This document shows positions 3,773 through 55,694 of a stretch of 64,000 nt of DNA, one piece after another. Origin of the DNA: a virus (Duplodnaviria; Caudoviricetes); IMG/VR virus record IMGVR_UViG_3300025018_000148, positions 7,094 to 71,093 of that record, one strand, 5' to 3'. A program made the position numbers and the translations under genes. Positions within the stretch are counted from its first letter, which is position 1. Each line of letters opens with the position of its first letter. The notes under the pieces are model-generated. The model was given only the letters and a program-made list of their open reading frames with translations. It was not told the DNA's origin and did not search any database.

Positions 3773-4570
3773 ATGGATAGACTCGAAATACCCGCAACTC
3801 TTTCGTGGGAAGAAATCTCGCCCAAGCTTCCGGAGTGGGCGGTGAAGTTCAACGATGAGCAGAGAGCCTTGGTCCCCGAGATCCTTGACGCCTTGGTCGC
3901 GAATTGGGTCCGGGACGACTGGTTCACCACCCTCGATTTCCGCTATCTCCCGGACACGGTGGGGGACGGAGGGACACCCTACGGCAATGTCGTCCAGTCG
4001 GTTCTCGAATCCCCCCTCGTTTGGTATCACCCGGACGGGGTTCTCAAACAGCCTTTGCTCGACATCGTGGTGGAGAATACCAGATACTTGTTCTCCAACT
4101 TCATTCAGCGGCAGGCTCGCAAAGCCCCGTATTCTTTCAACACCGATTCCTTGAACACCATGCTGCGACTGCCGGGGTGGAAGGAGCTTGTGGATTTCCC
4201 CCACGAGGACCGATACCCGGAGCAGCACGGGAAGGAGCCCATTGCCCCCTACATTCTTAAAGACGAGGGCGAGAGGGTCAAGTTGGTGCCTTCCGACCGG
4301 TATGAAGCCGCCCGTTGGTGGGATCGGATTGTCGTGCAACCGGGGTGGCTGTCCGTGGAAGTCCCTCGGCCCCTGTCTTCTGCCTACTGCTACGGGTCGC
4401 ACCCACAAACCCCCGAGAACTGGCGTGGGGAATGGAAGTGGTTGAACGCCCGCGAGACGATTGGGGAGACAACCTACATTCGTTTCGACGAAGGCTACTT
4501 CCGGGGGCGCTTCGTCGTTCGGACGGACTTCATGGAATTCAAGATCCGGCGCTTCCGGACCCGCATTTAA
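3773..4570 (+). CDS. Degenerate, internally deleted paralogue of the major capsid protein
   Basis: Collinear matches to MCP 31135-32304: PDTVG/PDEMG, QSVLESPLV/QTALESPPV, IVVENT/ILTQNT, YEAA/YETA, GEWKWLN/GDWKWLN, GYFRGRF/GYFRGIF. Confidence 0.8.
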   Translation: MDRLEIPATLSWEEISPKLPEWAVKFNDEQRALVPEILDALVANWVRDDWFTTLDFRYLPDTVGDGGTPYGNVVQSVLESPLVWYHPDGVLKQPLLDIVVENTRYLFSNFIQRQARKAPYSFNTDSLNTMLRLPGWKELVDFPHEDRYPEQHGKEPIAPYILKDEGERVKLVPSDRYEAARWWDRIVVQPGWLSVEVPRPLSSAYCYGSHPQTPENWRGEWKWLNARETIGETTYIRFDEGYFRGRFVVRTDFMEFKIRRFRTRI

Positions 4571-14500: not shown

Positions 14501-17500
14501 GACTGCTCTCTTCGCCCAACTCTTGTTTGACTCCCCAAGATTCCTGCGAGGCAAGCTGCGGGAGAACACTGGGGTCAGGGAACTTTTGTTTGATGGATTC
14601 GACGGTGGTGTCGAATCCGAAGGGGAGGATGGGTTCTTTTGCATTGTTGGGGTTCCCTCTGTTGGATTTGGTGTTGACGGTGGTGAAGGTCGAGACATCG
14701 AAGAGCGCGTCTTGGTCAGCGGCAATCGAGATCTCGACCGCAGTGTCGAAGTTGATGATGGGGAAAGAAACGTCGAGCACAAAGCGGTTGGTGTCGATGT
14801 CGAACCACCCTCCGAGTTGCGCTCCCGGAATGTCGAACATATCTGCGTGCTGCTCTAAGTAAGCTTCGAGATCCGCATCCGAGAAGTCCTCGTTCACGAA
14901 CGCCCCCGTCGCTTTCGAGGGTGCGACGAGGTAGCCAATCGTGGCGAAACTTCCGTCCGGTCCCACGGTGAATCCGTCCTTCGATTCCCGGATGATCGCC
15001 GCGAGAGCGGAGGAATTGGATTTGAAGTCTTGGAATCTCGATGGGGCGGGCGGGTTGGTTTCAGAATCCGATACCACAGATTCTTGGGTTTGTCCAGCAG
15101 AACTTTCCGGGCTTCCGGTTCCCTCGGGGGCTACCGAAGGAAGTCTTGGACGGCTTTGCGTTGGGCTGCTTCCGGAAGGAGTTGCAGTCTCAGCCTTTCT
15201 TTGAGAGGCAGTTTGCGAAGAACGTCTTTCCACTCGGGAGAGGTCTGCGAGGACTTCGTCGAGGAGTTCTTCGACTCGTTGCCTGACGTTGGGGTTTTTG
15301 GTTTCATTGTAGATTTGTTCCCTCAGATTGTTTAGTTCATCGACGGCGGCACCAAGTTCCTCGGGAGTCGCTTCGACATCCTCGTCCGTGGTGAGCTTCA
15401 GTAGGTTGGGTTTGTTGATCAGGTGCCGGGTGAGAGACTGTTCGAAGATACGAGCGTCCCGCTCATACTGCTCGGCAGTGTATTCTTGCTGCTGGTTGAA
15501 ACGGTCAATTCCCTCGCGAACTTCCGCCCGCACTTCCGGGATGTCCTGCACCTCTTCGAAGCGGGGATACTCGATGGCGATCTCGGCTCCTTGTCGAGCC
15601 CGCAATTCGAGACCAACTGTGATGGCGTCGTCCCCTTCGATGGTGAACTCCTTGCCGGTCTCCCGGTCTTTCAGGGTCATCGACGGGGTGTCTCCGGTGA
15701 AGTCGGACGCCACGAAGCCGGACACGGTGGAACGCTTTCCTCCGGGGGTCGAGGCGAAACGGTTCGTCACGACTGCGCCATCTTTCCTCACGAATGCCGT
15801 TCTTGGCGTTCTCGTGCGGCTGGAGACCGGGGTAGCCAGTTTCCGCCCTCCCACCTCGGAGATGATCTGGGCGGCTTGTGCGTCGTCCTGCTCGGCGCTT
15901 TCGTCCAAGGACACCGAGAACTCGCTTTCGGAGAATTTCTGGTCCGGGTTTTTCCCGACGATGATGGGAGGAGCCGTGGGTCCCCGGTCGAGGAGGACCG
16001 TCCCGTCTTCTTCGATGACCAAGGTTCCCGTCTCCCCCTCAACACGCACCGGTCGTCCCTCAACTGCGCGGAAAGTGGGCTCGGCCTTGGTGGGGGTGAC
16101 CGGCGTGACTCCCCCGGCAGCGGGCACGTCTGTTGCGGTCCCGGAAGAAGGAGTCTCGACACCATCAACAATCTCGGTTGTTACTTCACGTTCACGAGCT
16201 TCTTCGATGACTTGCTCAAAGGACACCGGAGTGTTCTTGTATCGGTCGTTGATCGTGCTGACAACCTTGGTTCTCGCTTCCGTGGCGTCCATGCCCTCGG
16301 CGACCAGTTCAGCAACAGCCCGGTTGCCGGTGGCAACCGGGTCATACTCGGCACCCGGAGTGACCGTCGCGTTCAACAGGTTCGAGATCTCGTCCCGTCG
16401 CGCCTTCAACTTCGTCGTGTCCGTGTTCGGTTCGGCTTGATCGATCTGCTGTTCGATCTGGTCGAGTTCGTCGATCAAAGAAGTGACACGAGCTTCCGCT
16501 GCATCGAACACCCGGTTGCCTGCCACTTCGACTTCCCGGACGTTGGCTTTTTCAAGAGCGTCGGCAGTCTGAGTCAGACCGGCTTCCCGGAGTTCCTCGA
16601 CCTTGCGTCTCCGAGCATCCATTTCGGGGGACCGCAGAATCGCTTCGTTGGTGCGGGCAGCAAAAGACTCGAAGGCATTGGTGGGGAGTTCCACGGCTCC
16701 CCCGATGACGGCACCGGCAGTCCCGGCGAAGAGGGTGTTCTTCCACCAGTCCTCCCACGTCATGTCCGGGTTGCTGATAAGGGCATCGAGACCCCCGTTG
16801 ATCCCTTCGTCCAAGGCTTCCTCCAGACCTTCCGAGAGACCCCCTGCGGTGACGCGACCTGCAAAGGCCAAAGTATTTGCGGCACCGTCACTCAGTTCGG
16901 TCTTGAACTCTTTCGCGGCATACTTCTTGATTTGATCGGAAAGAGTCTTCCGAGCCGCAGGATTGTTGGCGACTGTGTTGAGACGAGCGATACCCTCGAT
17001 CCCTCGAAGACCGAAGACGCTCGTGATCGCAGCGGTGATGACTCCCGTCCGGGTTGCATCGAGCAGACCTCGTTGTCTCGCCTCGGCTTCGAGTTCTTCC
17101 CCGGCGAGACCCTGCGCGGCGAGTTCGCTCCGATGTCGTTCGTAGTTCTCGTAGAAAGCGGGACCGGCAGAAGAGGCTCCGGCAAGGGCGATTGCCATGG
17201 GTTTCTGGAGCAGGTCGAGATACTCACCCGTAGCCAGTTTCTTGGTCGGACTCTTTGCGAGGAGACTCTTGGCAAGTTGCGCAGATACCTGCTTCTTCAC
17301 CCCCTTCTTGGCGGCTTGAGCAGCCACCTGTTTTGCGACGGTCACGGTTCCCCCGGACAGCATGGTGGTGGCAATCTGAACGAAGGCATTGGCAGCGGGG
17401 TCGATCAACTTCCCGGCTCCCTCCAGCCCTCCGAGCAATTCGATTCGGGCACTGGCGCTTTGCTTGGCTGCGGAAGTCTCACCGAGAAACCCCATGGAGG

Positions 17501-18414: not shown

Positions 18415-19443
18415 TTACTCGAAAAAGCGGTCGGACTCTCGGATGTCCTTCCGGATGATTTTGGTGGTGTCTTTCAAGCCCCCGGCTCCGGTGGTTTCCG
18501 AAGGCAGATCACCCAGTTCACGTTGCAGCTTGTCGATGGAATCGGCAACCAACTTCTTGCGCTCGGGGGTCGCCGACTCATTGAGCGGGTCGTTCAACTC
18601 CTCCTGATATTTCATGAGTCCCTGAAGACGGGTCCGCTTCTCGGCGACAGACTTGTCTTCGAGTTCTTTTTGGGCGAGGGCTTGTTTCCTTTCGCCCATG
18701 TAAACCGAAAGTTTCTTGGGGTCTACGCGCCCCTTGTCGTCCACGAGTCCTTCTTCGAGAACGTTCCCATCGGCATCGGTGACCCCGAAGATCTTCGACT
18801 CCGAAATCCCTTCCGCGAGAAGAGCGTTGACCTCGGAAGCCGTCTGCGATTCTGAGATGACCCGGCGAAGAGCTTGCTTCGGGGTAGCGGTTTTGGAATA
18901 CTTGTCGTAAAGCTCCCGTTGTGCCGGAGACATTTGTTCATAGGCATCCTCAAGTTCTTCCTGATCCCGGAAGCCCTTCTCATCCTCCCGGAGAATGCCT
19001 TCCTGTTTGCGACGAACCCGGAAGTCACGGTTCCCCTCCCTGCGCCGACGTTGAAGTTCCATCTCGGCACCACGATCTGCCTCGGCATCGGCAAAGACCC
19101 CTCCCTGCACTTCGAGGAAATTCGACACGGCAGCATCAAGCGATGCGTTGGGGTTGCGTGCAAGAATGTCCTGCACCTTCGTCATATACTCGGGGTCGTT
19201 AGCGGGGTCCAGTTGGGTCAACTGGGACATGGCAAGTTGACCCTGTTGGAGAGTTTGCTCCTCACGACGAAGCTTGTTGAATCGACTCCGAGTCTCAAGT
19301 AGTTGGCTCTCGGTGTTGGCCCGGTCGGCGGTGAGGCGATTCGCTTGCTCAAAGCTGACTGCGTTCCTCCCAAATACGGAAGGAGCCGAACGCCCTCCGA
19401 CGTTCGGAACCCCCTCAAGAAGTTCATCTAGTAGGTCCGCCAT
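18415..19443 (-). CDS. Probable internal virion (ejection) protein
   Basis: Helical, charged 342-aa protein directly upstream of the giant internal protein. Confidence 0.55.
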   Translation of the reverse strand: MADLLDELLEGVPNVGGRSAPSVFGRNAVSFEQANRLTADRANTESQLLETRSRFNKLRREEQTLQQGQLAMSQLTQLDPANDPEYMTKVQDILARNPNASLDAAVSNFLEVQGGVFADAEADRGAEMELQRRRREGNRDFRVRRKQEGILREDEKGFRDQEELEDAYEQMSPAQRELYDKYSKTATPKQALRRVISESQTASEVNALLAEGISESKIFGVTDADGNVLEEGLVDDKGRVDPKKLSVYMGERKQALAQKELEDKSVAEKRTRLQGLMKYQEELNDPLNESATPERKKLVADSIDKLQRELGDLPSETTGAGGLKDTTKIIRKDIRESDRFFE

Positions 19444-19446
19444 GTG

Positions 19447-20439
19447 TTAGCCTCCAAGAATACGGGTGATTCGGTTACGGGGTTTGATACCTTCCCGAAT
19501 GTCGGGCAAGGTTGCCGACTTGAAACGGCGACCTTCGGGGTCGAGGGACTCGGTTCGGACTCCGGCCCGCGCACGATTCTGAAGACGACTCATTGCTTCT
19601 TCCCTGCCGAACTCCGCTTCCTCCCTCTGGAAGATTCGGAAGTCGCTTCCCTCGGAGTAAAGTTTCTTTTCCTCTTCGTCGAGGTCTGCGAGTTTGAGCG
19701 TTCCGGCTTCGACCGCATCATAGAGTTCGAGAGAACGAGTGGTTCGATTCACCCCTTCACGAAGCGCCATGGACTCGGGGGAGAGAACCTCGGCTCCCGA
19801 AGCGGTCGGGGTAGGTGCCGGAGTCCGGGGACCCGAAGAGCCCCTGCCAATGACGTTCCCTGAAGCGTCACGAATGATCCGGTCGCCGGTCTCCGGGTCG
19901 GTCTCGGTTTTGACCGGCGCGAGACCGGGGGAGCTTGCGACATCGTTGGAGGTTCTGGTGGAGAAAACCGGGTTGACCCCGGTCCCTCCCATCTGGCGAT
20001 ACCGGCGATCCACGACCCCTCTCGCCTCTCCTTCATACCTGCCTCCATCGTCCGCTCCGGCGATCACCACGGGTGCAGACCCTCCCGTCCCAGTGGTAGG
20101 AGCACGCCGACTGTCAAGAAGACGTGACCCCGCATAGTTGAAGTCGTGATTGGCGGAAGGAATGCCGGTCATTTGAATCCCGGCAGCACGACCTTGGTTG
20201 AGAAGTTCAATGGCTTCCTGTCCGGCAGCGGTGTCCCCTTTCCGAAGTCGGCGATTGAGTCCCCGGAAAGTTCTTTTGTAGAGATTGCGCTCTACCCGTT
20301 GATCGTCTGCGAGACGAGACACCGCATCCCGGCGCTCCAGCAAGGAGGGCGAGTCCACGGTCAAGGCTCCCTCGGCTCCGAAGGATCTGGTGGAGGGGCT
20401 GACTGCCAGTGCCCCCGGTTCTCCGAATCGTCTTGCCAT
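19447..20439 (-). CDS. Probable internal virion (ejection/pilot) protein
   Basis: Start refined to ATG 20439, 4 nt after the upstream stop; Gly/Arg-rich; position in the ejection cluster. Confidence 0.55.
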   Translation of the reverse strand: MARRFGEPGALAVSPSTRSFGAEGALTVDSPSLLERRDAVSRLADDQRVERNLYKRTFRGLNRRLRKGDTAAGQEAIELLNQGRAAGIQMTGIPSANHDFNYAGSRLLDSRRAPTTGTGGSAPVVIAGADDGGRYEGEARGVVDRRYRQMGGTGVNPVFSTRTSNDVASSPGLAPVKTETDPETGDRIIRDASGNVIGRGSSGPRTPAPTPTASGAEVLSPESMALREGVNRTTRSLELYDAVEAGTLKLADLDEEEKKLYSEGSDFRIFQREEAEFGREEAMSRLQNRARAGVRTESLDPEGRRFKSATLPDIREGIKPRNRITRILGG

Positions 20440-20443
20440 GGTA

Positions 20444-21397
20444 TCACATGATGTTGTCGATGCCTCCCACCCCCGGACCCCACGGTTGGAAGTCCAGTTG
20501 CTCTTGCGCACCACCTTGGTAGTGGGAAGCTTCTTCGTTCAAAAGATTGATGCCTGCTCCAAAGTATTCACGAGCCTTGCCCATGGAGGAGTTCTCTTCG
20601 AAGTCGAGAGCATACATCCCCAGTTTGAGCGCGGACAGATTGCCGGGGAAAAGCCAGTCCTCCTCTGCGACCACCGGCACGGCACGACGCTTGCAGAGCG
20701 CGAGCACGGATTGGGCTCCGAGATCGAGAACCCGATAGGCTCGGAAGAGCGGCTTCTTCATGAAGGCTTCCGCTCGAAGCAGCACTGTCGAACTTGCGGT
20801 GTGGGACAGAGTGACGGGTCCGGCAGTGATCGGCTTTTGGATACCCTTGACCCCCGAGTATACGATGCTTGTAGCGACAGTCGTCCCGGCGAGGGTGACT
20901 TCTTCGCCGGGGGTCCCGGAAGAATCAACCACCCAGTTCCCGTTGGAGTCATACCCAAGGACCCGCACTTTCTTGTTCTCGTCCACGGAGGCGACGGCGG
21001 AGAAGGTCAGGGTGGAAGCGGTCGAAGGGAAACTCGCTTGCACTCCGAAAGACCCAAGATCCATGAGGGTTCGAAACACGCTCCCTTGGGCATCGACTTC
21101 CCCGACACCGTCGTAGGCAAACTGATAGCGATCCCCTTGAACGACGGCGGGAGTCTTGTCGAGGTTTGCATTGATGACCGACTCCAGATAATAGGGGAGG
21201 AAGAAAGTTTTGTCTTCCGACACATCGATCCGATACGTGGCTCGGCTCCCCACCCACTTCTCCATGGTGTGATACCGCTCAATGACTTCATTCAACCTGA
21301 CGAGGAACGCCGGATCGGACGTGTCGTTCGGGAAGAATTCGTGGGCGAATCGCTCTCGGGCGTCCGCGACAGTGCTGTTGGTGAGACCGAGATCCAT
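20444..21397 (-). CDS. Probable head-tail adaptor/tail tubular protein
   Basis: 317 aa; helical N- and C-termini flanking a beta-rich core; position in the tail module. Confidence 0.45.
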   Translation of the reverse strand: MDLGLTNSTVADARERFAHEFFPNDTSDPAFLVRLNEVIERYHTMEKWVGSRATYRIDVSEDKTFFLPYYLESVINANLDKTPAVVQGDRYQFAYDGVGEVDAQGSVFRTLMDLGSFGVQASFPSTASTLTFSAVASVDENKKVRVLGYDSNGNWVVDSSGTPGEEVTLAGTTVATSIVYSGVKGIQKPITAGPVTLSHTASSTVLLRAEAFMKKPLFRAYRVLDLGAQSVLALCKRRAVPVVAEEDWLFPGNLSALKLGMYALDFEENSSMGKAREYFGAGINLLNEEASHYQGGAQEQLDFQPWGPGVGGIDNIM

Positions 21398-31134: not shown

Positions 31135-32304
31135 TTAAGCCACGGGGTTGTGGTTTTCGTCGATGAAGACGTTCTGGACGTTGGCCCGCTTGTGGCGAAG
31201 CACATATCCGAACTCCGGATGGATCGGTTCAGACCCGGACGAGAAGATCCCACGGAAGTAGCCCCAAGACTTGTCGGGGTTTTCGACCCGATCTGGGATG
31301 TTGAGCCACTTCCAATCCCCCATGTATTTCTGAGCCTCGAACTCGGTCTCGCCACCGGGAGTGGTGATCGAAGCCGGGATGAGAGAACGAAACACCGAGC
31401 GGAGGAAGATGATGGTGTCCTCGTAGGTAGCGGTCTCGTAATCCGGATTCTCGACAGCCCTCGACCCCTTGGTCGTGGCGACAAGAATCAGCGGCGGGAC
31501 CTCGACCCACACACCCCCGGTGAAGTTCCAGCGGGGCGGGAAGTCGTCGATGAGATGGTAGAACCCGTTGTAGGCGCGGCTGACACCGAGAGGAGCAAGA
31601 AGCTCGGGAGCACGAGAAGTGTTCCGAATATCCTCACGGATCTCGTAGTCCTTGCGGACGATAGCCTTGTCCGTTTCGGGCGACATGATCGCGACGAACT
31701 GCGGGCGACCATCGACGTAATCGACAGAGCCGTCATCACGAGCCGCACCCTGACGAGTGAGCTTGAGGTGGAACCGTTCGAGGATGTCGCCGGTCAGACG
31801 ACCAGTGGGTTCCGTGGTCGGGAAGGAGCCACTGGCTTCCGGGAAACCGTCAGCGCAGATGACCTTGTGCTCCGAGAGGCGCACATACTCGCTCCGGTGA
31901 CGCTCCTGCCAAAGCCAACCGGTGTTCTGGGTCAGGATGCTGTAACAGTTCTCAAGCTGCTTGCGCCGCTTGAACGTGAAACGCAGGTCGTTGATACAAA
32001 CCGGAGGCGATTCGAGAGCCGTCTGCTGGAGGTTGTAGTTCCGAAGGGTTTGAGCGAATTCGATCTGTTCGGCAGTAGGCACACAGTTGGAGCCAGTGCC
32101 ATCGTTGAAGGTGACCGTTTGCCACGTCGGAGAGTTCGCAGGGATCGTGCGCTCGTAAGTGAGCACCGAAATCTGCTCGCCCATCTCGTCGGGCCAAGTC
32201 CCCTTCTCGACAAGATCGATCCAGACAGTAGTGTGAAGCGTGCGGTCGTGGATGTCCTCGGAGATCCGTCCCGATTCGCTTACCAAAAGATCGTTGATGT
32301 CCAT
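31135..32304 (-). CDS. Major capsid protein
   Basis: 389 aa; downstream of portal and scaffold; own long leader, candidate promoter and terminator. Confidence 0.8.
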   Translation of the reverse strand: MDINDLLVSESGRISEDIHDRTLHTTVWIDLVEKGTWPDEMGEQISVLTYERTIPANSPTWQTVTFNDGTGSNCVPTAEQIEFAQTLRNYNLQQTALESPPVCINDLRFTFKRRKQLENCYSILTQNTGWLWQERHRSEYVRLSEHKVICADGFPEASGSFPTTEPTGRLTGDILERFHLKLTRQGAARDDGSVDYVDGRPQFVAIMSPETDKAIVRKDYEIREDIRNTSRAPELLAPLGVSRAYNGFYHLIDDFPPRWNFTGGVWVEVPPLILVATTKGSRAVENPDYETATYEDTIIFLRSVFRSLIPASITTPGGETEFEAQKYMGDWKWLNIPDRVENPDKSWGYFRGIFSSGSEPIHPEFGYVLRHKRANVQNVFIDENHNPVA

Positions 32305-32541: not shown

Positions 32542-33366
32542 TTACCCCGGAAAGGCAATGACCTGTGCCCCGAGATTGCCGGTCAACGGTCCCGGTTGCC
32601 CAAGCTCGGTAAGCTCAAAGCACTTCAACCCCAGCAGAGAAAGCTGCTCGACAATCATTGCGGTCGTGCATCCGAGGTTGGGTCCGGGGTGCGCCTCGAC
32701 AATGACGAACCCCTTCTTCGGGAGCCCCCGCAAAGTCTTCTCCGCCCCGGCAATGACCTCCATCTCAAACCCCTCCACATCGATCTTGATGGCTTGCGGG
32801 GGATCGACATGAGCATACTGCGGGGGCAGATTACCAAATAGCTCGTCGAGAGAGACCACCTGAACTCGTTCAACCACGGCGTCCTTCTCTTCCTCCCGCC
32901 GAAAGGAGGACATTCCGGGGGTCTTGGTCCACCGAAGCTCGGTAATCCCCGCCTCCTTGCCCGCAGCCTTCGATAACACCCAGTCCAAAGGCATTCCGTG
33001 ATGGGCGAAGTTGATCCGGCAAAGCTCCCTCATTCGCCCCTCCGGTTCCAAGGCGATCACGGGAGCCCCGGTGATGCGGTGGGCGAAGATAGACATCGCT
33101 CCGATGTTGGCCCCCACATCCACGAAAACCATGCCCGAACGCAGATGCCTTTTTATCGCCTCGAACACCGGTCGCTCGTAAAACCCGAAGTGGAGCAAAC
33201 TGTGGGACAACCACCCCTCGGTCATCCACAAATCGAACCTCAGATACTCCGTGCCAGTGAGGTAGTATCTCATCCCCGAATGGGGGTCAAGATAGCAGGG
33301 GACGGTCTGAGGAACGAGATGCAGCAAGGCGTTGCCCGAAAAAAGTTTTGGTTCAGGCAACGCCAT
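32542..33366 (-). CDS. FkbM-family SAM-dependent methyltransferase
   Basis: VFVDVGANIG, IALEPE, IKIDVEGFEMEVIAGA. Confidence 0.92.
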   Translation of the reverse strand: MALPEPKLFSGNALLHLVPQTVPCYLDPHSGMRYYLTGTEYLRFDLWMTEGWLSHSLLHFGFYERPVFEAIKRHLRSGMVFVDVGANIGAMSIFAHRITGAPVIALEPEGRMRELCRINFAHHGMPLDWVLSKAAGKEAGITELRWTKTPGMSSFRREEEKDAVVERVQVVSLDELFGNLPPQYAHVDPPQAIKIDVEGFEMEVIAGAEKTLRGLPKKGFVIVEAHPGPNLGCTTAMIVEQLSLLGLKCFELTELGQPGPLTGNLGAQVIAFPG

Positions 33367-33383: not shown

Positions 33384-34667
33384 TTACCCGAAGGTGATGT
33401 CACCGCTCGCGAATCTTTCGTCCACACTTTCGAGGAACGTCGATCCCGGTTTGTAGTCCTTGTCGGACTTGCCGGGGGCGGGGTCTTTCCCGCTCACTCC
33501 GACTCCCTTGCCCTTGCCGGGGGCGGAACCAGTCAGACGAGCAACGGACTTCTCAAGCTCTCCGATGCGCTTGGTGTAGCCCGCACGCTCCGCAGCGTGC
33601 TTCTTGACCAGAGCCGGGACGAGATGAGTAGCGAAGGCTGCGAAAGCCTGCGTTCCAAGAGCGGCAATCGCGAGGTTGGCCCCCCGACCTTTCTTGAAGA
33701 CCTCGGCGAATTCGGGAAGCACCTCTCCGTCTTCCCCAACAATGCCGGGGATCTTGGTGGTGATGTTCTTCCAGACGGTGTCGGCGGCAGCTTCGAGAGC
33801 CTGTTGGTCTTCCTTGCTGCGGGCACCTTTTTCGGCGAGTCCCTTCCGGTCGAGATCCTTCTTCATCTCGGCGGCATTCTTCCGGAACTCGGCATCCTTC
33901 TCGAAGATCTCGTCCGCACGACTCACGAGACCATAGAGCTTGTGCTTGAGGAAGTCCGGCATGTCGTCGGTGATTTCGGACAACTTCTTGGCACGAGCGG
34001 ACAGGTTGGTCTCCGCCAGAGCCTCGAAAATCTCGTTCTCCAGTTCGGAGTCCCCGTCAGAGATCGCTTTGACCTCCTTCTCAACACGAGCCATGGGAGC
34101 ACGAACCTCCTGTTGATACTGCTCGGAGTTCGTGACCGACACCGCAGCGATGATCTTGTCCTGCTCAGCGAGTTTGGCTTCGAGTTCCTTGACCCTTTCG
34201 GAGGAGACCTCGGGGGCGCTCTCCCGCAATGTCTTGATCTCGGCCTTGAGAGACAGGTTCTCCTTCTCCGCAGCACGAAGCTCCTTCCAACGGGCTTCCG
34301 ACTTGGCTCCCTGCTTCTTGACTTCTTCGGGGACTTCCTCCTCGTCATCGTCGTCCTCGGTGGATTCCTCCTTCGAAGCTTTCTTCTTCTCGGGTTCCTC
34401 CTCTTCGAGCTTGGTCAGGTCGTCGAGGGACGGTTCGACAATCTCCTCGATCTCTTCGACCTCCTCGGATTTCGACGGGGTCACCTTGGCAGGAGTCTCT
34501 TTGCCGGGAGTCTCCTCGGATTTCGACGGGGTCACCTTGGCAGGAGTCTCTTTGCCGGGAGTCTCCTTGCCGGGGATTTCTTCGTGTTCGGGGGCGTCAA
34601 GGACCGTGCCACCTTCCGCAATGCGGGCGTCCAGCAGATCCATGAGTCCTAAGCGTTGTGTGGACAT
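33384..34667 (-). CDS. Capsid scaffolding protein
   Basis: Acidic disordered N-terminus, long coiled coil, between portal and MCP. Confidence 0.7.
   Translation of the reverse strand: MSTQRLGLMDLLDARIAEGGTVLDAPEHEEIPGKETPGKETPAKVTPSKSEETPGKETPAKVTPSKSEEVEEIEEIVEPSLDDLTKLEEEEPEKKKASKEESTEDDDDEEEVPEEVKKQGAKSEARWKELRAAEKENLSLKAEIKTLRESAPEVSSERVKELEAKLAEQDKIIAAVSVTNSEQYQQEVRAPMARVEKEVKAISDGDSELENEIFEALAETNLSARAKKLSEITDDMPDFLKHKLYGLVSRADEIFEKDAEFRKNAAEMKKDLDRKGLAEKGARSKEDQQALEAAADTVWKNITTKIPGIVGEDGEVLPEFAEVFKKGRGANLAIAALGTQAFAAFATHLVPALVKKHAAERAGYTKRIGELEKSVARLTGSAPGKGKGVGVSGKDPAPGKSDKDYKPGSTFLESVDERFASGDITFG
34461..34562 (-). repeat. Perfect 51-bp tandem duplication in the scaffold gene
   Basis: Two identical units 34461-34511 and 34512-34562 (TPGKETPAKVTPSKSEE). 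Confidence 0.95.
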
Positions 34668-35104: not shown

Positions 35105-37363
35105 TCACAATCCTGACTGCCCCGCACCAGAGGTGCGGAAGTCGAAAGGACTGATCGCACTCGCCGCTTTCGCGTCTGCAAGACGAGCATCCGTGTTGGC
35201 TTTGAGAAGTTTTGCCTGAATCTCGGCATCCGTCTTCTGCTGGATGATCTGGAGATTTTGCATGTGGAGTTCCGCCTTGCGTCGGAGTTCCTGTTGGTGA
35301 GCTTCTTCCTTGGGATCGGCAGCACCTTGGGGTGCGCCTTCCTCCGCCGCTTTTTGTCGGGCAGCTTCGAGCTTGCGGAATCCGTTGGTGATGATCTCCC
35401 CGGACTGCTGGAGGATCTGCCGGAATCGAGACACGTCGTTCTGGGACGAGTAGTTCGCTTCTTCCTCGTTGAGATGCTGGACACAGTGCTCGTGCAGAAC
35501 GAACAACCCTTCGACAACTTCCTCCATGGGGAGTCCCTCCGACACTTGCTGGATGACCTGCGCCATGATAGCGGTGTGCTCTTCGAGGTGCGTAATGTGC
35601 ATCTCGTTCGACTGCACCGGAACGGACACGCCATCGAGAAGCCACTGGGTCTCAAGATATGCGATCTTGGCGGCATCGGGTTTACGGACAACCTCGGGTC
35701 TGGAGATATACTCGTCCGCAGCATCGTAGGACCCAAGAATGTGGGCGGCACGATTCCGAGTCAAAGCCTTCCGACCGGTCTCGTCGAAGCCGGGGGAGAT
35801 CTCGGTCAATTGCCTGAAGGCTTCTTCCCGAGCCACGGCGCTCCCTGCTCCCACGGGACGGGTGATCCGGATTGTCCGGATCTTGAGTTTGTAAAGCGCC
35901 TCCAATGGAATCCCTTCTTCCTCAAGTTCTTTGTGCAAGGCTACGATCTCCCTGCCCCCCGGCATTCTTTCGTCCCACCCTTCTTGGATGATCCGTCGAA
36001 TCATCTCGATGATAAGCTTCTCGAACTGCTCGACGAACAGCAGCAGGTTCTTCACGGTCATCCCGGTCGCGTTCGAGATTCGGGCAGACGCTTCGAAGCG
36101 AGACATCTCGCGGGAGTCGTCAGGGAGCGCGAGGGAAGCGGTATAACCTCCTGCCTTCTCCCGAATCAGCGACTTCATCTGGTTGATGACCGGAAGAGTG
36201 TTCTGGGCGAAGTTGCCCAAGCCCCGCTCGATCACCTCGGCATCGGGGTGGAGCACTGTGAAAGGCCCCCGGAAGGATAACTGGGCTTTCCCGAGTGCCG
36301 AAGCATTCTTGGGACGAACGAGCAGAGACGAAGCGAGCATTGCTCCGTCGATGTGGTGACCATACATGCGATTGTTGGTCTGAACCGCAGAGAAGATCTT
36401 TTTCCCAAGCCCTCGGATGCCGTGGAACTTCCCTCCCGAACCAACATTGAAAATGAACGACACGAAAGCCTCGCCCATCCTCTCATACTGGTTCTTCTTC
36501 TCGAAGAGGAACTTGTCCACCCCGTCGTCGGAGGTCAAGATATACTGGGTGACAGAACCATCAAACTCGGTGACCCAGCAGTAGAGCACCTCGACGACCT
36601 TGGCCCGCGCCGACATGCAAAGATCGTTGGACTTGGCTTCCGTGACCCAATCTTCCCACGACTTATAGTTCCCGTTGTTGCCGGTCTTCGAAGCTTTGAG
36701 AATCGCCTTCTTGACCGAAGCCTCGTCCCACCCCATCTCCTTCGCGCCACCGTTGCGGATCTTGCTATACAATTCCGTAACCGTGAACTTCTCGCGAGCA
36801 AACGCGACCTCCACCTCGTCTTCCGAGGAGTCGGTATCTCGGGGAATGTAGAACTGCCCGAGGCGGCGAACATCAAAACGCCAATCGATGTGATCCCGGA
36901 AAGTGGCGAACGACACCCCCTCAGACACAAAGTATGTTGCGTTCAAAAGGTAGCGTTGCAGGAAGAGACCCCATCGGCGGATCAGCTTGGAAACCTTGTC
37001 ACACACCTTGCGGGCATTCTCGTTCCGCTCGGTCGGCGTCTCACCGAACTCGGTCTCGGCAGTGAAGAGCACCTCGACACTCTGGAGCATGTCGATGTAA
37101 GCCCCAAGAGCTTTCTCCAGAAGGTCCTCCCCCTCCCCGAAGTTGACGTTACACCGATAGGACTGGTTAGCTCGCTTGAGTTCCCCCCGATCATACGGAG
37201 GTTCCCCATCAAACATGAGTTGCTGCTTGGCCCGATCTCGGGAGGCTTCCTTGTCCGCCCGCTCCAAAATCTTGAAGTAGGTTCGAGCAGCCTTGGCGTC
37301 CGAGAACCGGGACTCCGGGGGCTCCTCGGTCTTGGCGTCCAATGATGCGGGCTCGTCTGACAT
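35105..37363 (-). CDS. Portal (head-tail connector) protein
   Basis: 752 aa; downstream of TerL; Gln/Ala-rich coiled-coil C-terminus typical of podovirus portals. Confidence 0.8.
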   Translation of the reverse strand: MSDEPASLDAKTEEPPESRFSDAKAARTYFKILERADKEASRDRAKQQLMFDGEPPYDRGELKRANQSYRCNVNFGEGEDLLEKALGAYIDMLQSVEVLFTAETEFGETPTERNENARKVCDKVSKLIRRWGLFLQRYLLNATYFVSEGVSFATFRDHIDWRFDVRRLGQFYIPRDTDSSEDEVEVAFAREKFTVTELYSKIRNGGAKEMGWDEASVKKAILKASKTGNNGNYKSWEDWVTEAKSNDLCMSARAKVVEVLYCWVTEFDGSVTQYILTSDDGVDKFLFEKKNQYERMGEAFVSFIFNVGSGGKFHGIRGLGKKIFSAVQTNNRMYGHHIDGAMLASSLLVRPKNASALGKAQLSFRGPFTVLHPDAEVIERGLGNFAQNTLPVINQMKSLIREKAGGYTASLALPDDSREMSRFEASARISNATGMTVKNLLLFVEQFEKLIIEMIRRIIQEGWDERMPGGREIVALHKELEEEGIPLEALYKLKIRTIRITRPVGAGSAVAREEAFRQLTEISPGFDETGRKALTRNRAAHILGSYDAADEYISRPEVVRKPDAAKIAYLETQWLLDGVSVPVQSNEMHITHLEEHTAIMAQVIQQVSEGLPMEEVVEGLFVLHEHCVQHLNEEEANYSSQNDVSRFRQILQQSGEIITNGFRKLEAARQKAAEEGAPQGAADPKEEAHQQELRRKAELHMQNLQIIQQKTDAEIQAKLLKANTDARLADAKAASAISPFDFRTSGAGQSGL

Positions 37364-48557: not shown

Positions 48558-48863
48558 TCATTTGCGAGCGATTTTGAACGACAAACGATTTTGAGGATCA
48601 CGAATGTCCGACAAATCCGGCTCCCGGTGTATCCGACCTTCCTGCGCTTTGAAGCTCCCCGCCAATCGGAGATACTCTTCCCGGTGTCGGGCTTCGTAGA
48701 CCGTCCTCGTGCTGGTCACCAGAAGCCGGTAGATCCTGTCGAGTTCCTCGGAAGTCACATACCCCGGAACACGACCCGGAGAGGGCAGCACGGGGGTCTC
48801 CACGACCTGCCGACACCCGGCAACAAAAGCGGCAACGCCGATGAGGAAGCGACGACGGTTCAT
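48558..48863 (-). CDS. Tat-signal lipoprotein-like peptide carrying an MCP-derived segment
   Basis: MNRRRFLIGVAAFVAGC (RRxFL + lipobox); LDRIYRLLVTSTRTVYEARHREEYLRLA is 11/28 identical, ungapped, to MCP 117-144. Confidence 0.75.
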   Translation of the reverse strand: MNRRRFLIGVAAFVAGCRQVVETPVLPSPGRVPGYVTSEELDRIYRLLVTSTRTVYEARHREEYLRLAGSFKAQEGRIHREPDLSDIRDPQNRLSFKIARK

Positions 48864-49225
48864 GACTTGGGCTGTTGCTTCTCGATTCGCTGGATCTCCC
48901 GGTCAAGATACCTCCGGGCCTTCTTCAGATCTTCGAGAGGGTTTCCTTTTTCGTCGGCACGCCAAATATACTTGATGGCGTTTCCGAGGCAAAAGTTCAT
49001 GTGCTCGGTGATCTGAATACACTCCACTCCGGAAGGGTGCTTCCGATAGTGGGGAGGCAGGTTGACCAAGTCAACTTCCGGAAGTTGGTCCGGAGCTTCG
49101 GAGGCATCCCCCGAGACCATCCACGTCCACTTCCCATGCCCTTCGCAGGCGGGATCATTGCACTGCCCCATAACATTCGTGGGACCTTGGCACCGGGGAC
49201 AGAGATAGTCAGATGCGCTTCCCAT
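48860..49225 (-). CDS. DUF3310 (SaV-like) protein with N-terminal CxxC
   Basis: VNLPPHYRKHPSGVECIQI...FCLGNAIKYIWRA..K..EDLKKARRYL. Confidence 0.85.
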   Translation of the reverse strand: MGSASDYLCPRCQGPTNVMGQCNDPACEGHGKWTWMVSGDASEAPDQLPEVDLVNLPPHYRKHPSGVECIQITEHMNFCLGNAIKYIWRADEKGNPLEDLKKARRYLDREIQRIEKQQPKS

Positions 49226-50294
49226 GGAGAATACTCTTGAGGTTGTGGGCAACGATCTCCGGGGAGAGCGAGTTGAGGACGGAGCACTGAAGCTCCACGG
49301 CACACTTCTTTCCGGGAGGGAAAGGATTGCCTCCCACAGGAAGGTAGTTGCAGAACCGGCAGGGTCCCATGCCTTTCATGGCTTGGACCGTCTTCTGGTC
49401 CCCTTGGGTGAGCGAAGGATCGAAAGCTCCGGAGAGCACGAGAGCGGGGATGTCGAGGGCTCCGGCGACGTGCATGAAGAGGGAGTCGGGGACAAGCATC
49501 ACGTCACAGGTCTTGGCAACCGCGACCGACATTCGAACGGACAACCCCTTCTCGGAAAGATTGACCAGATTGTCCGCTTTCCCCCACGCAACATCAATGT
49601 CACCGGGAGCCCCGAACAGGTAAATCTCGTCGGCGACTTTGTTCCGGAGGAGATGCGCCATGACCTCCACCGTCCGTTTGCGATGATAGGTCCGGTTCTC
49701 CGCCGATGCCCGCACTTGCACCCCGACCCGGATCTTCCCCGACTCCTTGGGGAAGCTGTCCTCCGCCCACGCCATCTCGTCGGCGGTGAGCACGTAGAGA
49801 ACCTTGCGGTCGTCGAGACGGTCGAGTCCACAAGCCCGAGCGAACCGGGTCGCGTAGGTGTAACCGGCAAGCTCCTTGTCAGGATGCTCCAAGACCCCTT
49901 CGAGGAAGAAGTAGTGGTTGCCCGGCTGCTGGTAGTCCTCAAACTTTACGGGGTATCCAACCGTGTCCACAACCCCATTGAGGATGGGTGCATACCGGGG
50001 GTGGCACACCACCTTGACCGCAACCCCCGGATACCTGAGTCTCAAAGCTTTCACGGTGGGGGTGAGAAGGAGCAGGTCCCCGAAAGATCCGGGGCGGACG
50101 AGATATATTGTATCCCCGGAAAGGATGTTCGAAGGGAGAACTCCCGAAACGACTTTCCTCTGGAGGTTCTCCACCTCTCCCACCGCATTCTGGGTGAGGG
50201 CTTGCGCCAACGGCATGGGTCCGAGGATATACTCTCCGGAGTCCACTCCCAGCCGGGAGAACCACCATGCTTGATTGCAATTCACTTTATACAT
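49209..50294 (-). CDS. GT9-family (heptosyltransferase-like) glycosyltransferase
   Basis: GSFGDLLLLTPTVKALR, VPDSLFMHVAGALDIPALVL, PCRFC...C. Confidence 0.85.
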   Translation of the reverse strand: MYKVNCNQAWWFSRLGVDSGEYILGPMPLAQALTQNAVGEVENLQRKVVSGVLPSNILSGDTIYLVRPGSFGDLLLLTPTVKALRLRYPGVAVKVVCHPRYAPILNGVVDTVGYPVKFEDYQQPGNHYFFLEGVLEHPDKELAGYTYATRFARACGLDRLDDRKVLYVLTADEMAWAEDSFPKESGKIRVGVQVRASAENRTYHRKRTVEVMAHLLRNKVADEIYLFGAPGDIDVAWGKADNLVNLSEKGLSVRMSVAVAKTCDVMLVPDSLFMHVAGALDIPALVLSGAFDPSLTQGDQKTVQAMKGMGPCRFCNYLPVGGNPFPPGKKCAVELQCSVLNSLSPEIVAHNLKSILHGKRI

Positions 50295-50320
50295 ACTTCA
50301 GATACTTGGGGTTAAACTCG

Positions 50321-51160
50321 TCAGCTTCCGACAACATTTCCGTCCTCCGTCCAACGGAACTCGCCGACAGGGAGGGGCTTCCCACACTGACAGCAATAAG
50401 TGAGCCCGTAGAATGACGGATCACTTGCATAGGTCTCGGCGATCACCGGAGCAATGTTCGTTGTCGCCCCGCAGGTCGTGTGAACGTAGGAGCGACGAAG
50501 GGGGCGAACAAACCCCCGCTTCGCCAGTTCTTCCTTCGAGAGGACGAGAAACTTCACGCTCTGCCCGTCTGCCCTGCGCTCATGGAGTCGGGGATCGTCG
50601 GGGTCGGTAGTGAACGGGGGTTCGACCGGGGGCTTCTCCCACGTCATCCCACCATAAGGAGGGTCGAGTTTCGTGGGGGCGAACTTGTTGAGCCATTTTC
50701 GCGCTCCCCGAAAGGCCGCAGTGGTCTCGACTCCGGTCGTCCCGATCATGGAGATAAGCTCCGCAGCTTCCGCCACGGCTCTTTCCAAGGTGTGCCCGGT
50801 ATTGCACTGGACCTGCGTGCTGCGGTCGTCGTAGCACGTCTTCATGAGTCCGTCCTTCTCGTGGGTGACCTCGAACCGCTGCCCGAAGAGATGCTCCTCA
50901 CACCAGTCTTGGATGCACTCAACAATCTGAGCCTTGGAAACCCCTTGATTCCACTCCAGACACTCGGGGGAAACCCGAGCCGTGAAGATCTTGATGTCGT
51001 GGGTGTTCTCGCGCAAGATACGATGCACATCGCGGACCATCTCGACAACCGGGTCCCCGATGTGAAGAGGGTGCTTCCACCCATCATAATGCGCCAAAGT
51101 TCCGTCGAGATCGAAACCGATCCAACCCCTCTTCTTGATTCCGTGCGTATCAGTGCCCAT
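50321..51160 (-). CDS. HAD-superfamily phosphatase-like domain fused to a C-terminal Zn-binding domain
   Basis: IGFDLDGTLA motif I, IFTAR, YDD; C-terminal HTTCG...YCCQC. Confidence 0.75.
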   Translation of the reverse strand: MGTDTHGIKKRGWIGFDLDGTLAHYDGWKHPLHIGDPVVEMVRDVHRILRENTHDIKIFTARVSPECLEWNQGVSKAQIVECIQDWCEEHLFGQRFEVTHEKDGLMKTCYDDRSTQVQCNTGHTLERAVAEAAELISMIGTTGVETTAAFRGARKWLNKFAPTKLDPPYGGMTWEKPPVEPPFTTDPDDPRLHERRADGQSVKFLVLSKEELAKRGFVRPLRRSYVHTTCGATTNIAPVIAETYASDPSFYGLTYCCQCGKPLPVGEFRWTEDGNVVGS

Positions 51161-51401
51161 GCTTCTTTGCTCCTCGTAAAATTTGCTTCACTTCGGGGTC
51201 AGACATGACCCGGAGATGGATGCCATCTTCAAGTTCCTGCACGACCATGTTCTGCCCCTCATGACTGGCTGTCGCGGCGAAGACATCCTCGGCAGAGAGG
51301 ACGATGTGCTTCAACCCCTGCTTGTGCATGAGGATCATCAAAAGCTTGTGCCACTGCCCTGAAAAGGCTTCGGCGACTGCGGGGTCAGGATTTATACTCA
51401 T
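51150..51401 (-). CDS. Hypothetical protein
   Basis: 83 aa from ATG 51401, overlapping both neighbours. Confidence 0.6.
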   Translation of the reverse strand: MSINPDPAVAEAFSGQWHKLLMILMHKQGLKHIVLSAEDVFAATASHEGQNMVVQELEDGIHLRVMSDPEVKQILRGAKKHGH

Positions 51402-51618
51402 ATTGTGGGAGGTGTTGGCTGAGAGCGATCCAAGGAGACTCCCCGAGGACCTTTGTGTGAATGTCATGAGAGATGTTGTGAGCCTCGGCAATCAGGATCT
51501 CGTCAATGGTCCAACGACGGGAGGCTTGCGCCACCACCGGGGAAGATTCGAGAATGGGACGGACCCCCGCCACAAAAGCGAGAGCCATCCCGAGGAAAGC
51601 TCTTCGAGAGGACCTCAT
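51385..51618 (-). CDS. Tat-signal peptide carrying an MCP N-terminus-derived segment
   Basis: MRSSRRAFLGMALAFVAGV...VAQA; TIDEILIAEAHNISHDIHTKVLGESPWIAL is 12/30 identical, ungapped, to MCP 2-31; ATGA-coupled. Confidence 0.75.
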   Translation of the reverse strand: MRSSRRAFLGMALAFVAGVRPILESSPVVAQASRRWTIDEILIAEAHNISHDIHTKVLGESPWIALSQHLPQYEYKS

Positions 51619-52073
51619 TTCGGCCAACCCTCCCTTCGGGGAGCGAACCAACGGACGGCTCGATGCGCCGACCTCGCTCGCCACAGAGGGACCCCCTCCC
51701 GCAACATGAGGTTGAGGAAGATGTCATCCGCCTCCTTCCGGGTGAAAGGACGCTGGAAAGTCACACCCTCTTCGGTCTCCCCATAATGGAAGGAGCCTTT
51801 GCCGGTGGTCTGGTAAAGATAGTCGTGGATCAGGGGTGCGATCAAAGACAGTTCAAACGACCCTATCAAAGGCCAAAGAATCCGGGGGACAGAAGCCAGA
51901 TCGAATTCGAAATCCTTCGGGATCTCGAAGTGGACCATCTCGTCCTCGAAGTCCAGCTTCACCCGGTATTCCTCGACCAAAAGCCACACACCCCGGTGGG
52001 CAATATAGGTCACCCACACCGGGGGAAGAACGGACTTCTCGGGTCCGTGACGGGTTACGAGCAGGGAAGCCAT
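51615..52073 (-). CDS. DUF1353 family protein
   Basis: IPKDFEFDLASVPRILW...APLIHDYLY...RKEADDIF. Confidence 0.85.
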   Translation of the reverse strand: MASLLVTRHGPEKSVLPPVWVTYIAHRGVWLLVEEYRVKLDFEDEMVHFEIPKDFEFDLASVPRILWPLIGSFELSLIAPLIHDYLYQTTGKGSFHYGETEEGVTFQRPFTRKEADDIFLNLMLREGVPLWRARSAHRAVRWFAPRREGWPK

Positions 52074-52869: not shown

Positions 52870-53406
52870 TTATCTGAGCCGCCCGGTTACTGCGGCGTGA
52901 AAAATCAACAGAGCGTCGGCATTCGCAAGCGTGACCTGCTCGGAGGGGAATCGCTCCTGAGCCTTCTCCTTGAGGTGGTTCTTCCACGCACGCTCGCCGA
53001 TCAAAGACTTCTGCCCGGTGACGATCATCGCGGCAGTCATCCACTTGAGCGGAGCCACTTCGCGAACCTCGAAGCCCTCGAAAACGAAAGCGCACTCCAG
53101 ATGCCCCGTGACACGACCGAAAGAGAACATCGACTTGGCGGAAACCGCACCCTCCTCTTCTTCCTCCTCCCCCTTGCGCTTGGTGGAGGTCTTCATGCCC
53201 GCCATGTATCCCGTGTTGCGCTCCAAGAATGCGAGCCTCTTCGGATAGGCATAGGGAGGGAACTCCTCGTGAACGTGTAAGAAAAGCCGTTTCAATCCCT
53301 CAAGCTTCTCGGGATACTTGGTCCAATGATACCTTTCCTTCGAGGTCCCCCACACGAGAGCCCCCGCCTTGCCGGGATCAGCAGCAATGACCAACCGCTC
53401 AGGCAT
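52870..53406 (-). CDS. ruvC: RuvC-like Holliday junction resolvase
   Basis: IAADPGKAG, FLE, SMFSFG, VAPLKW, ADALLI. Confidence 0.8.
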   Translation of the reverse strand: MPERLVIAADPGKAGALVWGTSKERYHWTKYPEKLEGLKRLFLHVHEEFPPYAYPKRLAFLERNTGYMAGMKTSTKRKGEEEEEEGAVSAKSMFSFGRVTGHLECAFVFEGFEVREVAPLKWMTAAMIVTGQKSLIGERAWKNHLKEKAQERFPSEQVTLANADALLIFHAAVTGRLR

Positions 53407-53608
53407 TCTTCAGTTCCTCCCTTGCGGTTGCTAGTTCTTCCTCGGTGATCCGGACCTTGGCTCCACGCTCCGTGGCGAGCCTCGTGATCGTTGCCCCCAC
53501 GGAGCCCAATCCCAGCCGATTCTTCAGGGCAACCAATGTTGCCTTGGTGAGTTCGGGGAGGTAGGCGTTCAGGCGAGTCGGGTTCTCAATCTCCGGTTTT
53601 CGGGACAT
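53399..53608 (-). CDS. Small ribbon-helix-helix-like DNA-binding protein
   Basis: RLNAYLPELTKATLVALKNRLGLGSVGATITRL; start refined to ATG 53608. Confidence 0.55.
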   Translation of the reverse strand: MSRKPEIENPTRLNAYLPELTKATLVALKNRLGLGSVGATITRLATERGAKVRITEEELATAREELKNA

Positions 53609-53615
53609 GGGAGGA

Positions 53616-53644
53616 TTTCTACACCGAAAACCGATTTTCGGCAA
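53616..53644 (-). promoter_or_regulatory. Candidate promoter with a palindromic operator in the spacer; leaderless mRNA
   Basis: TTGCCG-N17-TAGAAA-N7-ATG; ccgaaaa-ccga-ttttcgg palindrome at 53624-53641. Confidence 0.55.
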
Positions 53645-53647
53645 GCA

Positions 53648-53687
53648 CAAAAACAAAACCCCGCCCCAGCGACAGGCTGGGGCGGGG
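53648..53687 (-). terminator. Intrinsic terminator downstream of the integrase
   Basis: ccccgccccagc/gctggggcgggg 12-bp stem then TTTTGTTTTT on the minus strand. Confidence 0.75.
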
Positions 53688-53743
53688 CGAAGCAAGTGCC
53701 GGAAAACCGCTCGTAAACCGGGCACCAACAGAACCACCGAAAG

Positions 53744-54909: not shown

Positions 54910-54945
54910 AAAAAAAACGCCCTCCTGAGAAATCAGGAGGGCGTT
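54910..54945 (-). terminator. Intrinsic terminator after the repressor-like gene
   Basis: aacgccctcctga-gaaa-tcaggagggcgtt with a flanking A/T tract. Confidence 0.8.
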
Positions 54946-54977
54946 CCGCCGTGGTTGTTGCGAGGTGGCGTGACAAA

Positions 54978-55556
54978 TCAATCAAAGGACATCTTCGTGC
55001 CATTGCCGGTCGAGGAATCCGGGGCAGGCGTCTCCTTGGAAGCCTCCTGCTTCACGGGGGCAGCTTTCTTGGCGGGAGCCGCCTTGGATGACTCCTTCTT
55101 CACCGGAACAGCTTTCTTGGCCGGAGCAGCTTTCTTCACCGGAGCCTTGGGAGTCTCCTTCTTCGCAAGGGCGGCTTTCTTGGCCGGAGCCTGCTTCTTG
55201 GCGAGCTTCGCATCAACCGGCTTCATGAGAGCCTCGGACACCTTGTCGGTGCCATCAAAGAGCGCGTCGAGGAAAGCCCGCCCCTTGGCAGTGACCTCGA
55301 AGACGATGGTGCGATCCTCGCCTTTCTTGGCCTTGATAAGACCGAGGTCCTTGAGCTTCGTGGTCACCCCGGCGACCGAGGCGTCGTGAAACCCGAGATC
55401 CCGGCACAACTGCCCGAGATACGCGGGGTTCCCCGCAAGGTTGCGCTCGTAGATCGCGATAAAGATCTGAGCGGTGGTGAGTCCGACCGGACCCGAGGTC
55501 CTCGTGAGGAAGTCACGAAGGGCGGAAAGGAGTTGCTTCACAGGGGCAAGTTTCAT
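54978..55556 (-). CDS. MarR-like winged-HTH regulator (repressor candidate) with histone-H1-like tail
   Basis: LTTAQIFIAI...LGQLCRDLG..ASVAGVTTKLKDLGLI...DRTIVFEVTAKGR; PAKK-rich C-terminus. Confidence 0.75.
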   Translation of the reverse strand: MKLAPVKQLLSALRDFLTRTSGPVGLTTAQIFIAIYERNLAGNPAYLGQLCRDLGFHDASVAGVTTKLKDLGLIKAKKGEDRTIVFEVTAKGRAFLDALFDGTDKVSEALMKPVDAKLAKKQAPAKKAALAKKETPKAPVKKAAPAKKAVPVKKESSKAAPAKKAAPVKQEASKETPAPDSSTGNGTKMSFD

Positions 55557-55632: not shown

Positions 55633-55666
55633 AAAAAAAATCCCGGCAGTCGCCTGCCGGGATTTT
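55633..55666. terminator. Probable bidirectional terminator
   Basis: aaaatcccggcag-tcgc-ctgccgggatttt with A and T tracts. Confidence 0.75.
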
Positions 55667-55694
55667 CAAAAGAGAGCTTGCGGGTCCGGGAGGG

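Follow-up and report, generated by a model that had tools for sequence, protein, structure and literature searches.

Why would a phage encode, as a separate small gene, a piece of its own head-shell protein behind what looks like a bacterial export signal? This is the question raised by a 77-codon open reading frame (ORF; hereafter small1) of an uncultured N4-like phage. The window analysed here is a stretch of 64,000 nucleotides, bases 7094-71093 of a 71,093-bp IMG/VR virus record rated as complete by CheckV. The original prediction was that the ORF carries a Tat signal peptide with an SRRxFL motif, shares the AFVAG pentapeptide with a second Tat gene, ends its leader in AxA, aligns ungapped with the N-terminal segment of the major capsid protein (MCP) at 12 of 30 positions, and is ATGA-coupled to a DUF1353 gene; two independent fusions of this kind were taken to argue against chance. 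The features to which we refer are as follows.

51385..51618, minus strand: small1, 77 aa (leader, loop, copy of the MCP N-terminal arm, short tail).
51629..51633, minus strand: Shine-Dalgarno-like GGAGG, 10 nt upstream of the small1 ATG.
51523..51618, minus strand: export-type leader of small1, residues 1-32 (basic n-region with RR-x-F-L, 13-residue uncharged core, basic residue, AxA).
51415..51513, minus strand: copy of the MCP N-arm, residues 36-68 of small1.
51615..52073, minus strand: upstream DUF1353 gene (PF07087, E 1.3e-21), ATGA-coupled to small1.
51150..51401, minus strand: downstream 83-aa ORF, with no Pfam or PHROG hit; its ATG lies 17 nt inside the end of small1, in the same insert.
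49209..51160, minus strand: rest of the lineage-specific insert, a 279-aa protein with weak phosphatase/kinase-family PHROG hits (phrog_1238 and phrog_415, E about 1e-5) and a GT9 (heptosyltransferase-family) gene (PF01075, E 1.2e-4, just under its cut-off).
48558..48863, minus strand: small2, the sister ORF of 101 aa, with an RR leader ending in a lipobox (V-A-G-C) and a copy of the MCP spine helix.
32206..32304, minus strand: the original N-arm (residues 1-33) within the MCP gene 31135-32304.
3773..4570, plus strand: a third MCP-derived ORF (orf265, 265 aa) without a leader, residues 147-249 of which match MCP 258-356.

We first asked whether small1 is a gene. The ORF lies where it had been placed, and its start ATG overlaps the TGA of the DUF1353 gene as ATGA. 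A codon-usage log-odds score trained on ten long genes of the window was positive only in the small1 frame (+0.13 per codon overall and +0.37 for the mature part) and negative in the five other frames. One public gene call (P0002) starts at codon 11, but that internal ATG has no ribosome site, and two independent homologues begin with the twin-arginine N-terminus. Translation is thus likely, given the ribosome site, the ATGA coupling, the best coding frame and conserved homologues with the same N-terminus.

The MCP itself (389 aa) has no Pfam or PHROG family and no relative in GenBank phages, but has 324 metagenomic homologues. An AlphaFold2 model built on 53 of them (pLDDT 76.7) is an HK97 fold with a long spine helix at residues 113-143, and its top Foldseek neighbours are the coats of N4-like phages (DEV 9bgn, N4 9e99, Shigella B2 and Moo19; E about 1e-10). 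Residues 1-33 form the N-arm ahead of the first strand of the model and are predicted, at low confidence, as three short helices. The window also encodes a scaffold (33384-34667), a portal (35105-37363), a 3293-aa protein (8529-18410), a family A DNA polymerase, a helicase fused to DUF2800 and a tyrosine integrase. MCP relatives lie in metagenome-assembled genome (MAG) bins of Verrucomicrobiota and Planctomycetota, the likely host range.

The similarity between small1 and the MCP is not due to chance. Pairwise BLASTP gave 12/31 identities without gaps (ORF 38-68 against MCP 3-33; 30.0 bits, E 3e-6). To guard against selective comparison, the MCP was searched against all 377 six-frame ORFs of at least 60 aa in the window; the two leader-bearing ORFs were the two best non-self hits (E 0.002 and 0.004). 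In an all-against-all BLASTP of the window, small1 and small2, each against the MCP, were the only non-self, non-overlapping pairs at E <= 0.01. A profile HMM of 120 MCP homologues, from which the window's own MCP was excluded, hit small1 at model positions 5-36 (E 7.4e-6), small2 at positions 117-152 (E 1.3e-5) and orf265 at positions 259-356 (E 3e-9), whereas noise started at E about 3. Comparison with shuffled sequences, which had been named beforehand as a condition for rejecting the match, gave 20.4 bits for the real sequence against a maximum of 5.6 bits in 5000 shuffles. Profile-profile comparison (hhalign) returned probabilities of 92% for small1, 89% for small2 and 95% for orf265; small2 also matched MCP 115-144 by BLASTP (E 3e-6). 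The observation underlying the original prediction is therefore confirmed.

What kind of copy is this? Nothing in small1 matches beyond MCP residue 33. The AlphaFold2 model of small1 (overall pLDDT 62, and 72-88 in the arm copy) shows a leader helix at residues 4-24, a disordered linker, and helices at 38-57 and 62-69. The copy agrees with the MCP-family consensus at 10 of the 14 N-arm columns that are at least 80% conserved, but at only 5 of 19 variable columns (Fisher p 0.013); this test is partly biased, because detectable similarity must sit on conserved columns. It has lost the conserved G-R-I-G stretch. It is 12/33 identical to the phage's own N-arm, and thus no closer to it than to the arms of distant MCP subclades (8-17/33). 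It is therefore an old copy and not a recent duplicate.

The family is small but informative. A word-based search of 5.8 billion proteins returned only P0001 (ENA, 30.5-kb contig) and the window's own product, and a full HMMER scan of 1.8 billion representatives added only P0124 (Logan, 82 aa; E 5.6e-6). Only three family members exist among about 15 billion proteins. P0001 is 92% identical to small1, with differences that comprise a whole-codon deletion and substitutions concentrated in the c-region of the leader. P0124 is only 44% identical, yet it keeps an RR-x-F-F-L start, a 15-residue uncharged core and the arm copy. On its own, P0124 hit the MCP profile at positions 6-35 with 10.0 bits, against a maximum of 3.0 in 3000 shuffles, and it also preferred the conserved columns (8/14 against 3/19, p 0.017); P0124 was found through small1 and not through the MCP. 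Between small1 and P0124 the arm copy is the best conserved module (16/33, against 12/35 in the leader and 3/9 in the tail). This argues against debris and for constraint on both modules. Scans of IMG/VR and JGI metagenomes with the protein and with the three-member alignment found nothing further; a degenerate DNA pattern for the shared leader found one chance hit inside a tail-fibre-like gene of IMG/VR, and a pattern for the G-E-S-P-W motif found none. No match to small1 was found in GenBank phages, small2 has no homologue but itself, and a search of the ESM Atlas returned no usable lead (best score 0.88, below its own noise guide).

The leader resembles a twin-arginine signal by inspection. 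It has S-R-R-A-F-L-G at residues 4-10, a 13-residue uncharged core (mean Kyte-Doolittle hydropathy 2.3) containing A-F-V-A-G, an Arg after the core, and A-Q-A before residue 33. RR-x-F-(F)-L is also present in P0124 and RR-R-F-L in small2; the uncharged cores compared were of 13, 15 and 12 residues with mean hydropathy of 1.8-2.5, although P0124 lacks a clean AxA site. The core is too short for a stable membrane span, which favours a cleavable signal over an anchor. However, the curated Tat models (Pfam PF10518 and NCBIfam TIGR01409) gave no hit on small1, small2, P0001 or P0124 at E <= 10, and none anywhere in the 71-kb genome, whereas the controls scored in 12 of 14 genomes; these models are short, so that the test is of limited power. 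We therefore refer to an export-type, twin-arginine-like leader and leave the pathway open. The leader of small2 aligns with that of small1 at 14/31 positions, with identical spacing of F-L and A-F-V-A-G, and ends in a lipobox cysteine (V-A-G-C) where small1 has valine (V-A-G-V). This suggests one leader module used twice, and the two fusions are probably not fully independent, as had been supposed. The interpretation in the original prediction is thus supported only in part: the C-terminal half is a genuine relative of the MCP N-arm, a second leader-bearing ORF carries a different MCP piece and translation is likely, but the assignment of the leader to the Tat pathway is not established.

Strong terminator-like hairpins follow the integrase and the winged-helix gene, at 53688-53658, 54947-54914 and 55667-55636, and none lies between about 53650 and the helicase gene. 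small1 is therefore in the operon that runs through a RuvC-like gene, DUF1353, small1, the 83-aa ORF, the 279-aa protein, the GT9-family gene, DUF3310, small2, and then the helicase and polymerase. In a related phage record (G025) the order is RuvC-like, DUF1353, DUF3310 and helicase, with only short gaps. small1 with three cargo genes, and small2, are thus two insertions flanking DUF3310. The genes inserted with small1 belong to cell-envelope sugar families. Six-frame scans with the MCP profile of 16 related phage records (13 rated at least 90% complete) and 4 MAG contigs found nothing beyond their MCP genes, and a pattern scan for RR leaders in those genomes found nothing convincing. The feature is therefore lineage-specific within this phage group. 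We considered whether the three MCP pieces are shards of one broken second MCP gene, but this is not supported: they lie at three separate loci and on two strands, and small1 and small2 flank a conserved backbone gene as separate insertions. A link between the leader and the conserved C-terminal motif of the scaffold, as if a scaffold-MCP junction had been copied, was sought by eye and dropped, as the scaffold-MCP gaps in relatives are 200-370 nt.

How might such a gene work? In our preferred reading, held tentatively (probability about 0.4), small1 is a selectively maintained accessory gene of a temperate phage whose hosts are probably Verrucomicrobiota or Planctomycetota, and would be translated within the replication operon. 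Its product would comprise a cleavable leader of 32 residues and a hydrophilic, helical peptide of 45 residues (net charge about -2) that still carries most of the family-invariant residues of the arm. The leader would take the peptide to or across the inner membrane, where it would act as a competitive mimic of the capsid arm towards whatever normally recognises that arm, together with the putative lipoprotein small2. Our analysis demonstrates the reality of the gene, its homology to the N-arm, the conservation of both modules and the lineage-specific insertion; export, binding, mimicry as the mode of action and the identity of the target are inferred. The main weakness is that the capsid never enters the periplasm and no periplasmic partner for a capsid arm is known. 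In addition, the copy does not track the phage's own arm and, having lost G-R-I-G, may no longer bind what the arm binds. An unlikely but more far-reaching possibility is that small1 and small2 are delivered to the periplasm as a mimic of the inner face of the shell (N-arm and spine helix) and capture proteins that normally rest against that face inside the virion. In N4-like phages these would be the ejection proteins, which work on DEV shows to be stored in the head and expelled into the cell envelope (PMC11445570), and their capture would jam DNA entry of related superinfecting phages. Alternatively, the leader might let the mimic drag a bound cytoplasmic capsid sensor to the Tat machinery. 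Either would be a new class of phage weapon built from pieces of the phage's own shell.

Other explanations must be weighed against this reading. Exaptation without mimicry, which we regard as less likely, would make small1 an exported accessory protein of the usual kind (for example, in superinfection exclusion or as a helper of the neighbouring envelope-sugar enzymes), for which the capsid arm merely supplied a ready-made helical peptide whose present partners have nothing to do with capsids. The shared insert with GT9 and phosphatase-like genes, the lipobox of the sister gene (phage lipoproteins such as Ltp act at the cell surface in exclusion; PMC3952083), and the age and separate signature of the copy (G-E-S-P-W, loss of G-R-I-G, no tracking of the phage's own arm) are consistent with this. 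By contrast, the residues retained in both small1 and P0124 are preferentially those invariant in true N-arms, and the retention of two further MCP pieces in the same genome is hard to explain if the capsid origin were irrelevant. An equally unlikely alternative places the mimic on the cytoplasmic side, with a leader that is not an export signal in practice or serves only as a membrane or Tat-receptor tether, and with the arm copy acting as a decoy for a host sensor of nascent capsid protein or modulating head assembly by binding the scaffold or a neighbouring MCP subunit. Host defences sense capsid protein or a short piece of it (CapRel, PMC9712102; the Gol region with Lit, reviewed in PMC3014915) and satellites redirect assembly with small competitors such as CpmB (PMC5644958). 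The failure of the Tat models on the leader and the location of the leaderless orf265 in another accessory region also fit, as does the position of small1 with the replication genes, upstream of the structural genes on the same strand, from which expression before the MCP may be inferred. However, the basic n-region and 12-15-residue core, with an AxA site or lipobox (not clean in P0124), are conserved in all members and point to real targeting to the membrane with the C terminus outside, and the gene call that drops the leader lacks a ribosome site.

Evolutionary debris, a chimeric junction left by illegitimate recombination and open by luck, appears more doubtful still. The ORF does lie exactly at the boundary of the insert, its family is tiny and it is absent from all related phages examined, but the 44%-identical homologue keeps the reading frame, leader and arm copy, the 92% homologue differs by a whole-codon deletion and by changes mostly in the c-region of the leader, coding statistics favour the frame, and the gene is translationally coupled on both sides. 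Chance resemblance, for which only the shortness of the aligned stretch (31-33 residues) and the 39% identity to the phage's own MCP speak, is rejected by the searches, profile, shuffles and distant homologue described above.

If these genes work as mimics, phages would be re-using short, conserved pieces of their own shell protein as separately expressed, export-tagged tools, which would add a new principle to phage-phage or phage-host conflict and give a direct handle on which parts of capsid proteins are 'seen' by other molecules. Even without a function, the finding shows that small phage ORFans can arise by capturing fragments of structural genes behind a targeting leader and then be kept by selection, which bears on how new phage genes are born. 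The case is also experimentally tractable, with a peptide of only 45 residues, a leader amenable to E. coli and the authentic arm as a control. Full-text literature searches found no description of phage genes that fuse an export leader to a piece of the phage's own capsid protein, and the nearest systems differ from small1 in the following respects.

Twin-arginine signal peptides and small Tat or Sec substrates share with small1 the basic n-region with S-R-R-x-F-L, the short and moderately hydrophobic core, the basic residue after the core and the AxA site, and small2 has the Tat-lipoprotein layout with a lipobox; here, however, the curated models do not score the leader, export is an inference, and the cargo is a 45-residue copy of a virion protein rather than a cofactor enzyme. 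Compared with the HK97-fold MCPs of N4-like phages (9bgn and 9e99 as fold neighbours), residues 36-68 are homologous to the arm and keep a similar helical pattern, but small1 has no E-loop, P domain or A domain and so cannot be a shell subunit, lacks the G-R-I-G stretch, is fused to a leader and is encoded in the replication operon. In the Gol region of T4 gp23 with the Lit protease and in capsid sensing by CapRel, a short piece or surface of the MCP is likewise the recognised element (PMC3014915, PMC9712102), but it is part of the full MCP and is sensed by the host, whereas here the phage itself encodes the piece as a separate, leader-tagged gene, and any sensor in its host would be hypothetical. 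Superinfection-exclusion lipoproteins and membrane proteins (Ltp of TP-J34, P22 SieA) are also small, phage-encoded, envelope-targeted accessory proteins, and Ltp is reported to target a virion protein that enters the envelope during DNA injection (PMC3952083, PMC10883804), to which the capture of ejection proteins would be loosely analogous. There is, however, no sequence or fold relation. small1 lacks the lipobox cysteine of the Ltp, Llp and Cor type and has no Pfam, PHROG or NCBIfam family, its expression from a prophage would be an assumption, and the exclusion proteins are not copies of virion proteins. A spanin (Rz/Rz1 type) reading was rejected, because an i-spanin has a full transmembrane anchor and a long periplasmic coiled coil, with its gene next to or inside that of its partner and near the lysis genes, whereas small1 has a 13-residue core and a 45-aa mature part, is separated from small2 by four genes in the replication operon and gave no PHROG spanin hit. 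Finally, the capsid-assembly competitors of satellites (SaPI1 CpmB and the coat-like Ccm) are small proteins that act by competing for a binding site in the head-assembly pathway (PMC5644958), but CpmB resembles the scaffold rather than the coat and has no leader, Ccm is a whole coat-like fold, and both are encoded by satellites and not by the phage itself.

Two further ORFs of the genome are derived from the major capsid protein (MCP):
3773-4570 (+), a third MCP-derived ORF of 265 aa, without a leader
48558-48863 (-), small2, sister gene of the leader-bearing ORF small1

In the 265-aa ORF, residues 147-249 match MCP 258-356 (HMM E 3e-9, hhalign probability 95%). Against one relative's MCP the tblastn alignment stretches over residues 47-245. 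No orthologue exists in the relatives examined. small2 is composed of an RR leader ending in lipobox V-A-G-C, a proline-rich linker, and then a copy of the MCP spine helix that keeps the R-x-R-x-E-Y-x-R-L residues. Judged by eye alone, its tail may continue the MCP match (E-P plus a K-[LI]-x-R motif at equal spacing, near MCP 165-185). A search of 5.8 billion proteins returned no homologue of small2 except itself. In P0124, the distant small1 homologue (Logan contig, 936 bp), two cysteines bracket the copy of the MCP N-terminal arm (N-arm) exactly, at the positions aligned with small1 residues 37 and 67. This would suit a disulfide in an oxidising compartment. small1 itself has no cysteine.

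The surroundings of small1 include the insert that carries it, terminator-like hairpins and a gene next to the integrase:
49209-51401 (-), remainder of the insert that carries small1
53658-53688, 54914-54947 and 55636-55667 (-), three strong terminator-like hairpins
54978-55556 (-), 192-aa protein with a weak winged-helix match

Besides small1, the insert holds an 83-aa ORF of no family, a 279-aa protein with weak PHROG hits (phrog_1238 'phosphoheptose isomerase' and phrog_415 'polynucleotide kinase', E about 1e-5) and a GT9 heptosyltransferase-family gene. Together these look like an envelope-sugar modification cassette; a GT9 homologue at 34% identity is present in G001, one of the related phages. 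The hairpins (13-15 bp stems followed by T runs) bracket the integrase and the winged-helix gene. The first of them lies inside the listed 112-aa ORF 53399-53737, whose real start is therefore probably further downstream. The 192-aa protein, encoded next to the integrase, combines the weak winged-helix match (PF13463) with a long Ala/Lys/Pro-rich, histone-H1-like C-terminal tail, and may be the lysogeny regulator.

Two further regions hold a scaffold-like gene and a 3293-aa ORF:
33384-34667 (-), scaffold-like protein
8529-18410 (-), 3293-aa ORF

The scaffold-like protein has homologues at 20-29% identity in 10 relatives (alignment A3). They share a conserved extreme C-terminal motif, G/S-F-L-D/E-A/S-I/V-E/D, a candidate coat-binding helix. 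In this phage an FkbM-like methyltransferase gene (32542-33366) is wedged between the scaffold and MCP genes. The 3293-aa ORF has no Pfam family at E <= 0.001. By its size and by the N4-like coat, it may be the virion RNA polymerase or ejection protein. The two ORFs upstream of it on the same strand (18415-19443 and 19447-20514) sit where the N4-like phage DEV has gp72 and gp73.
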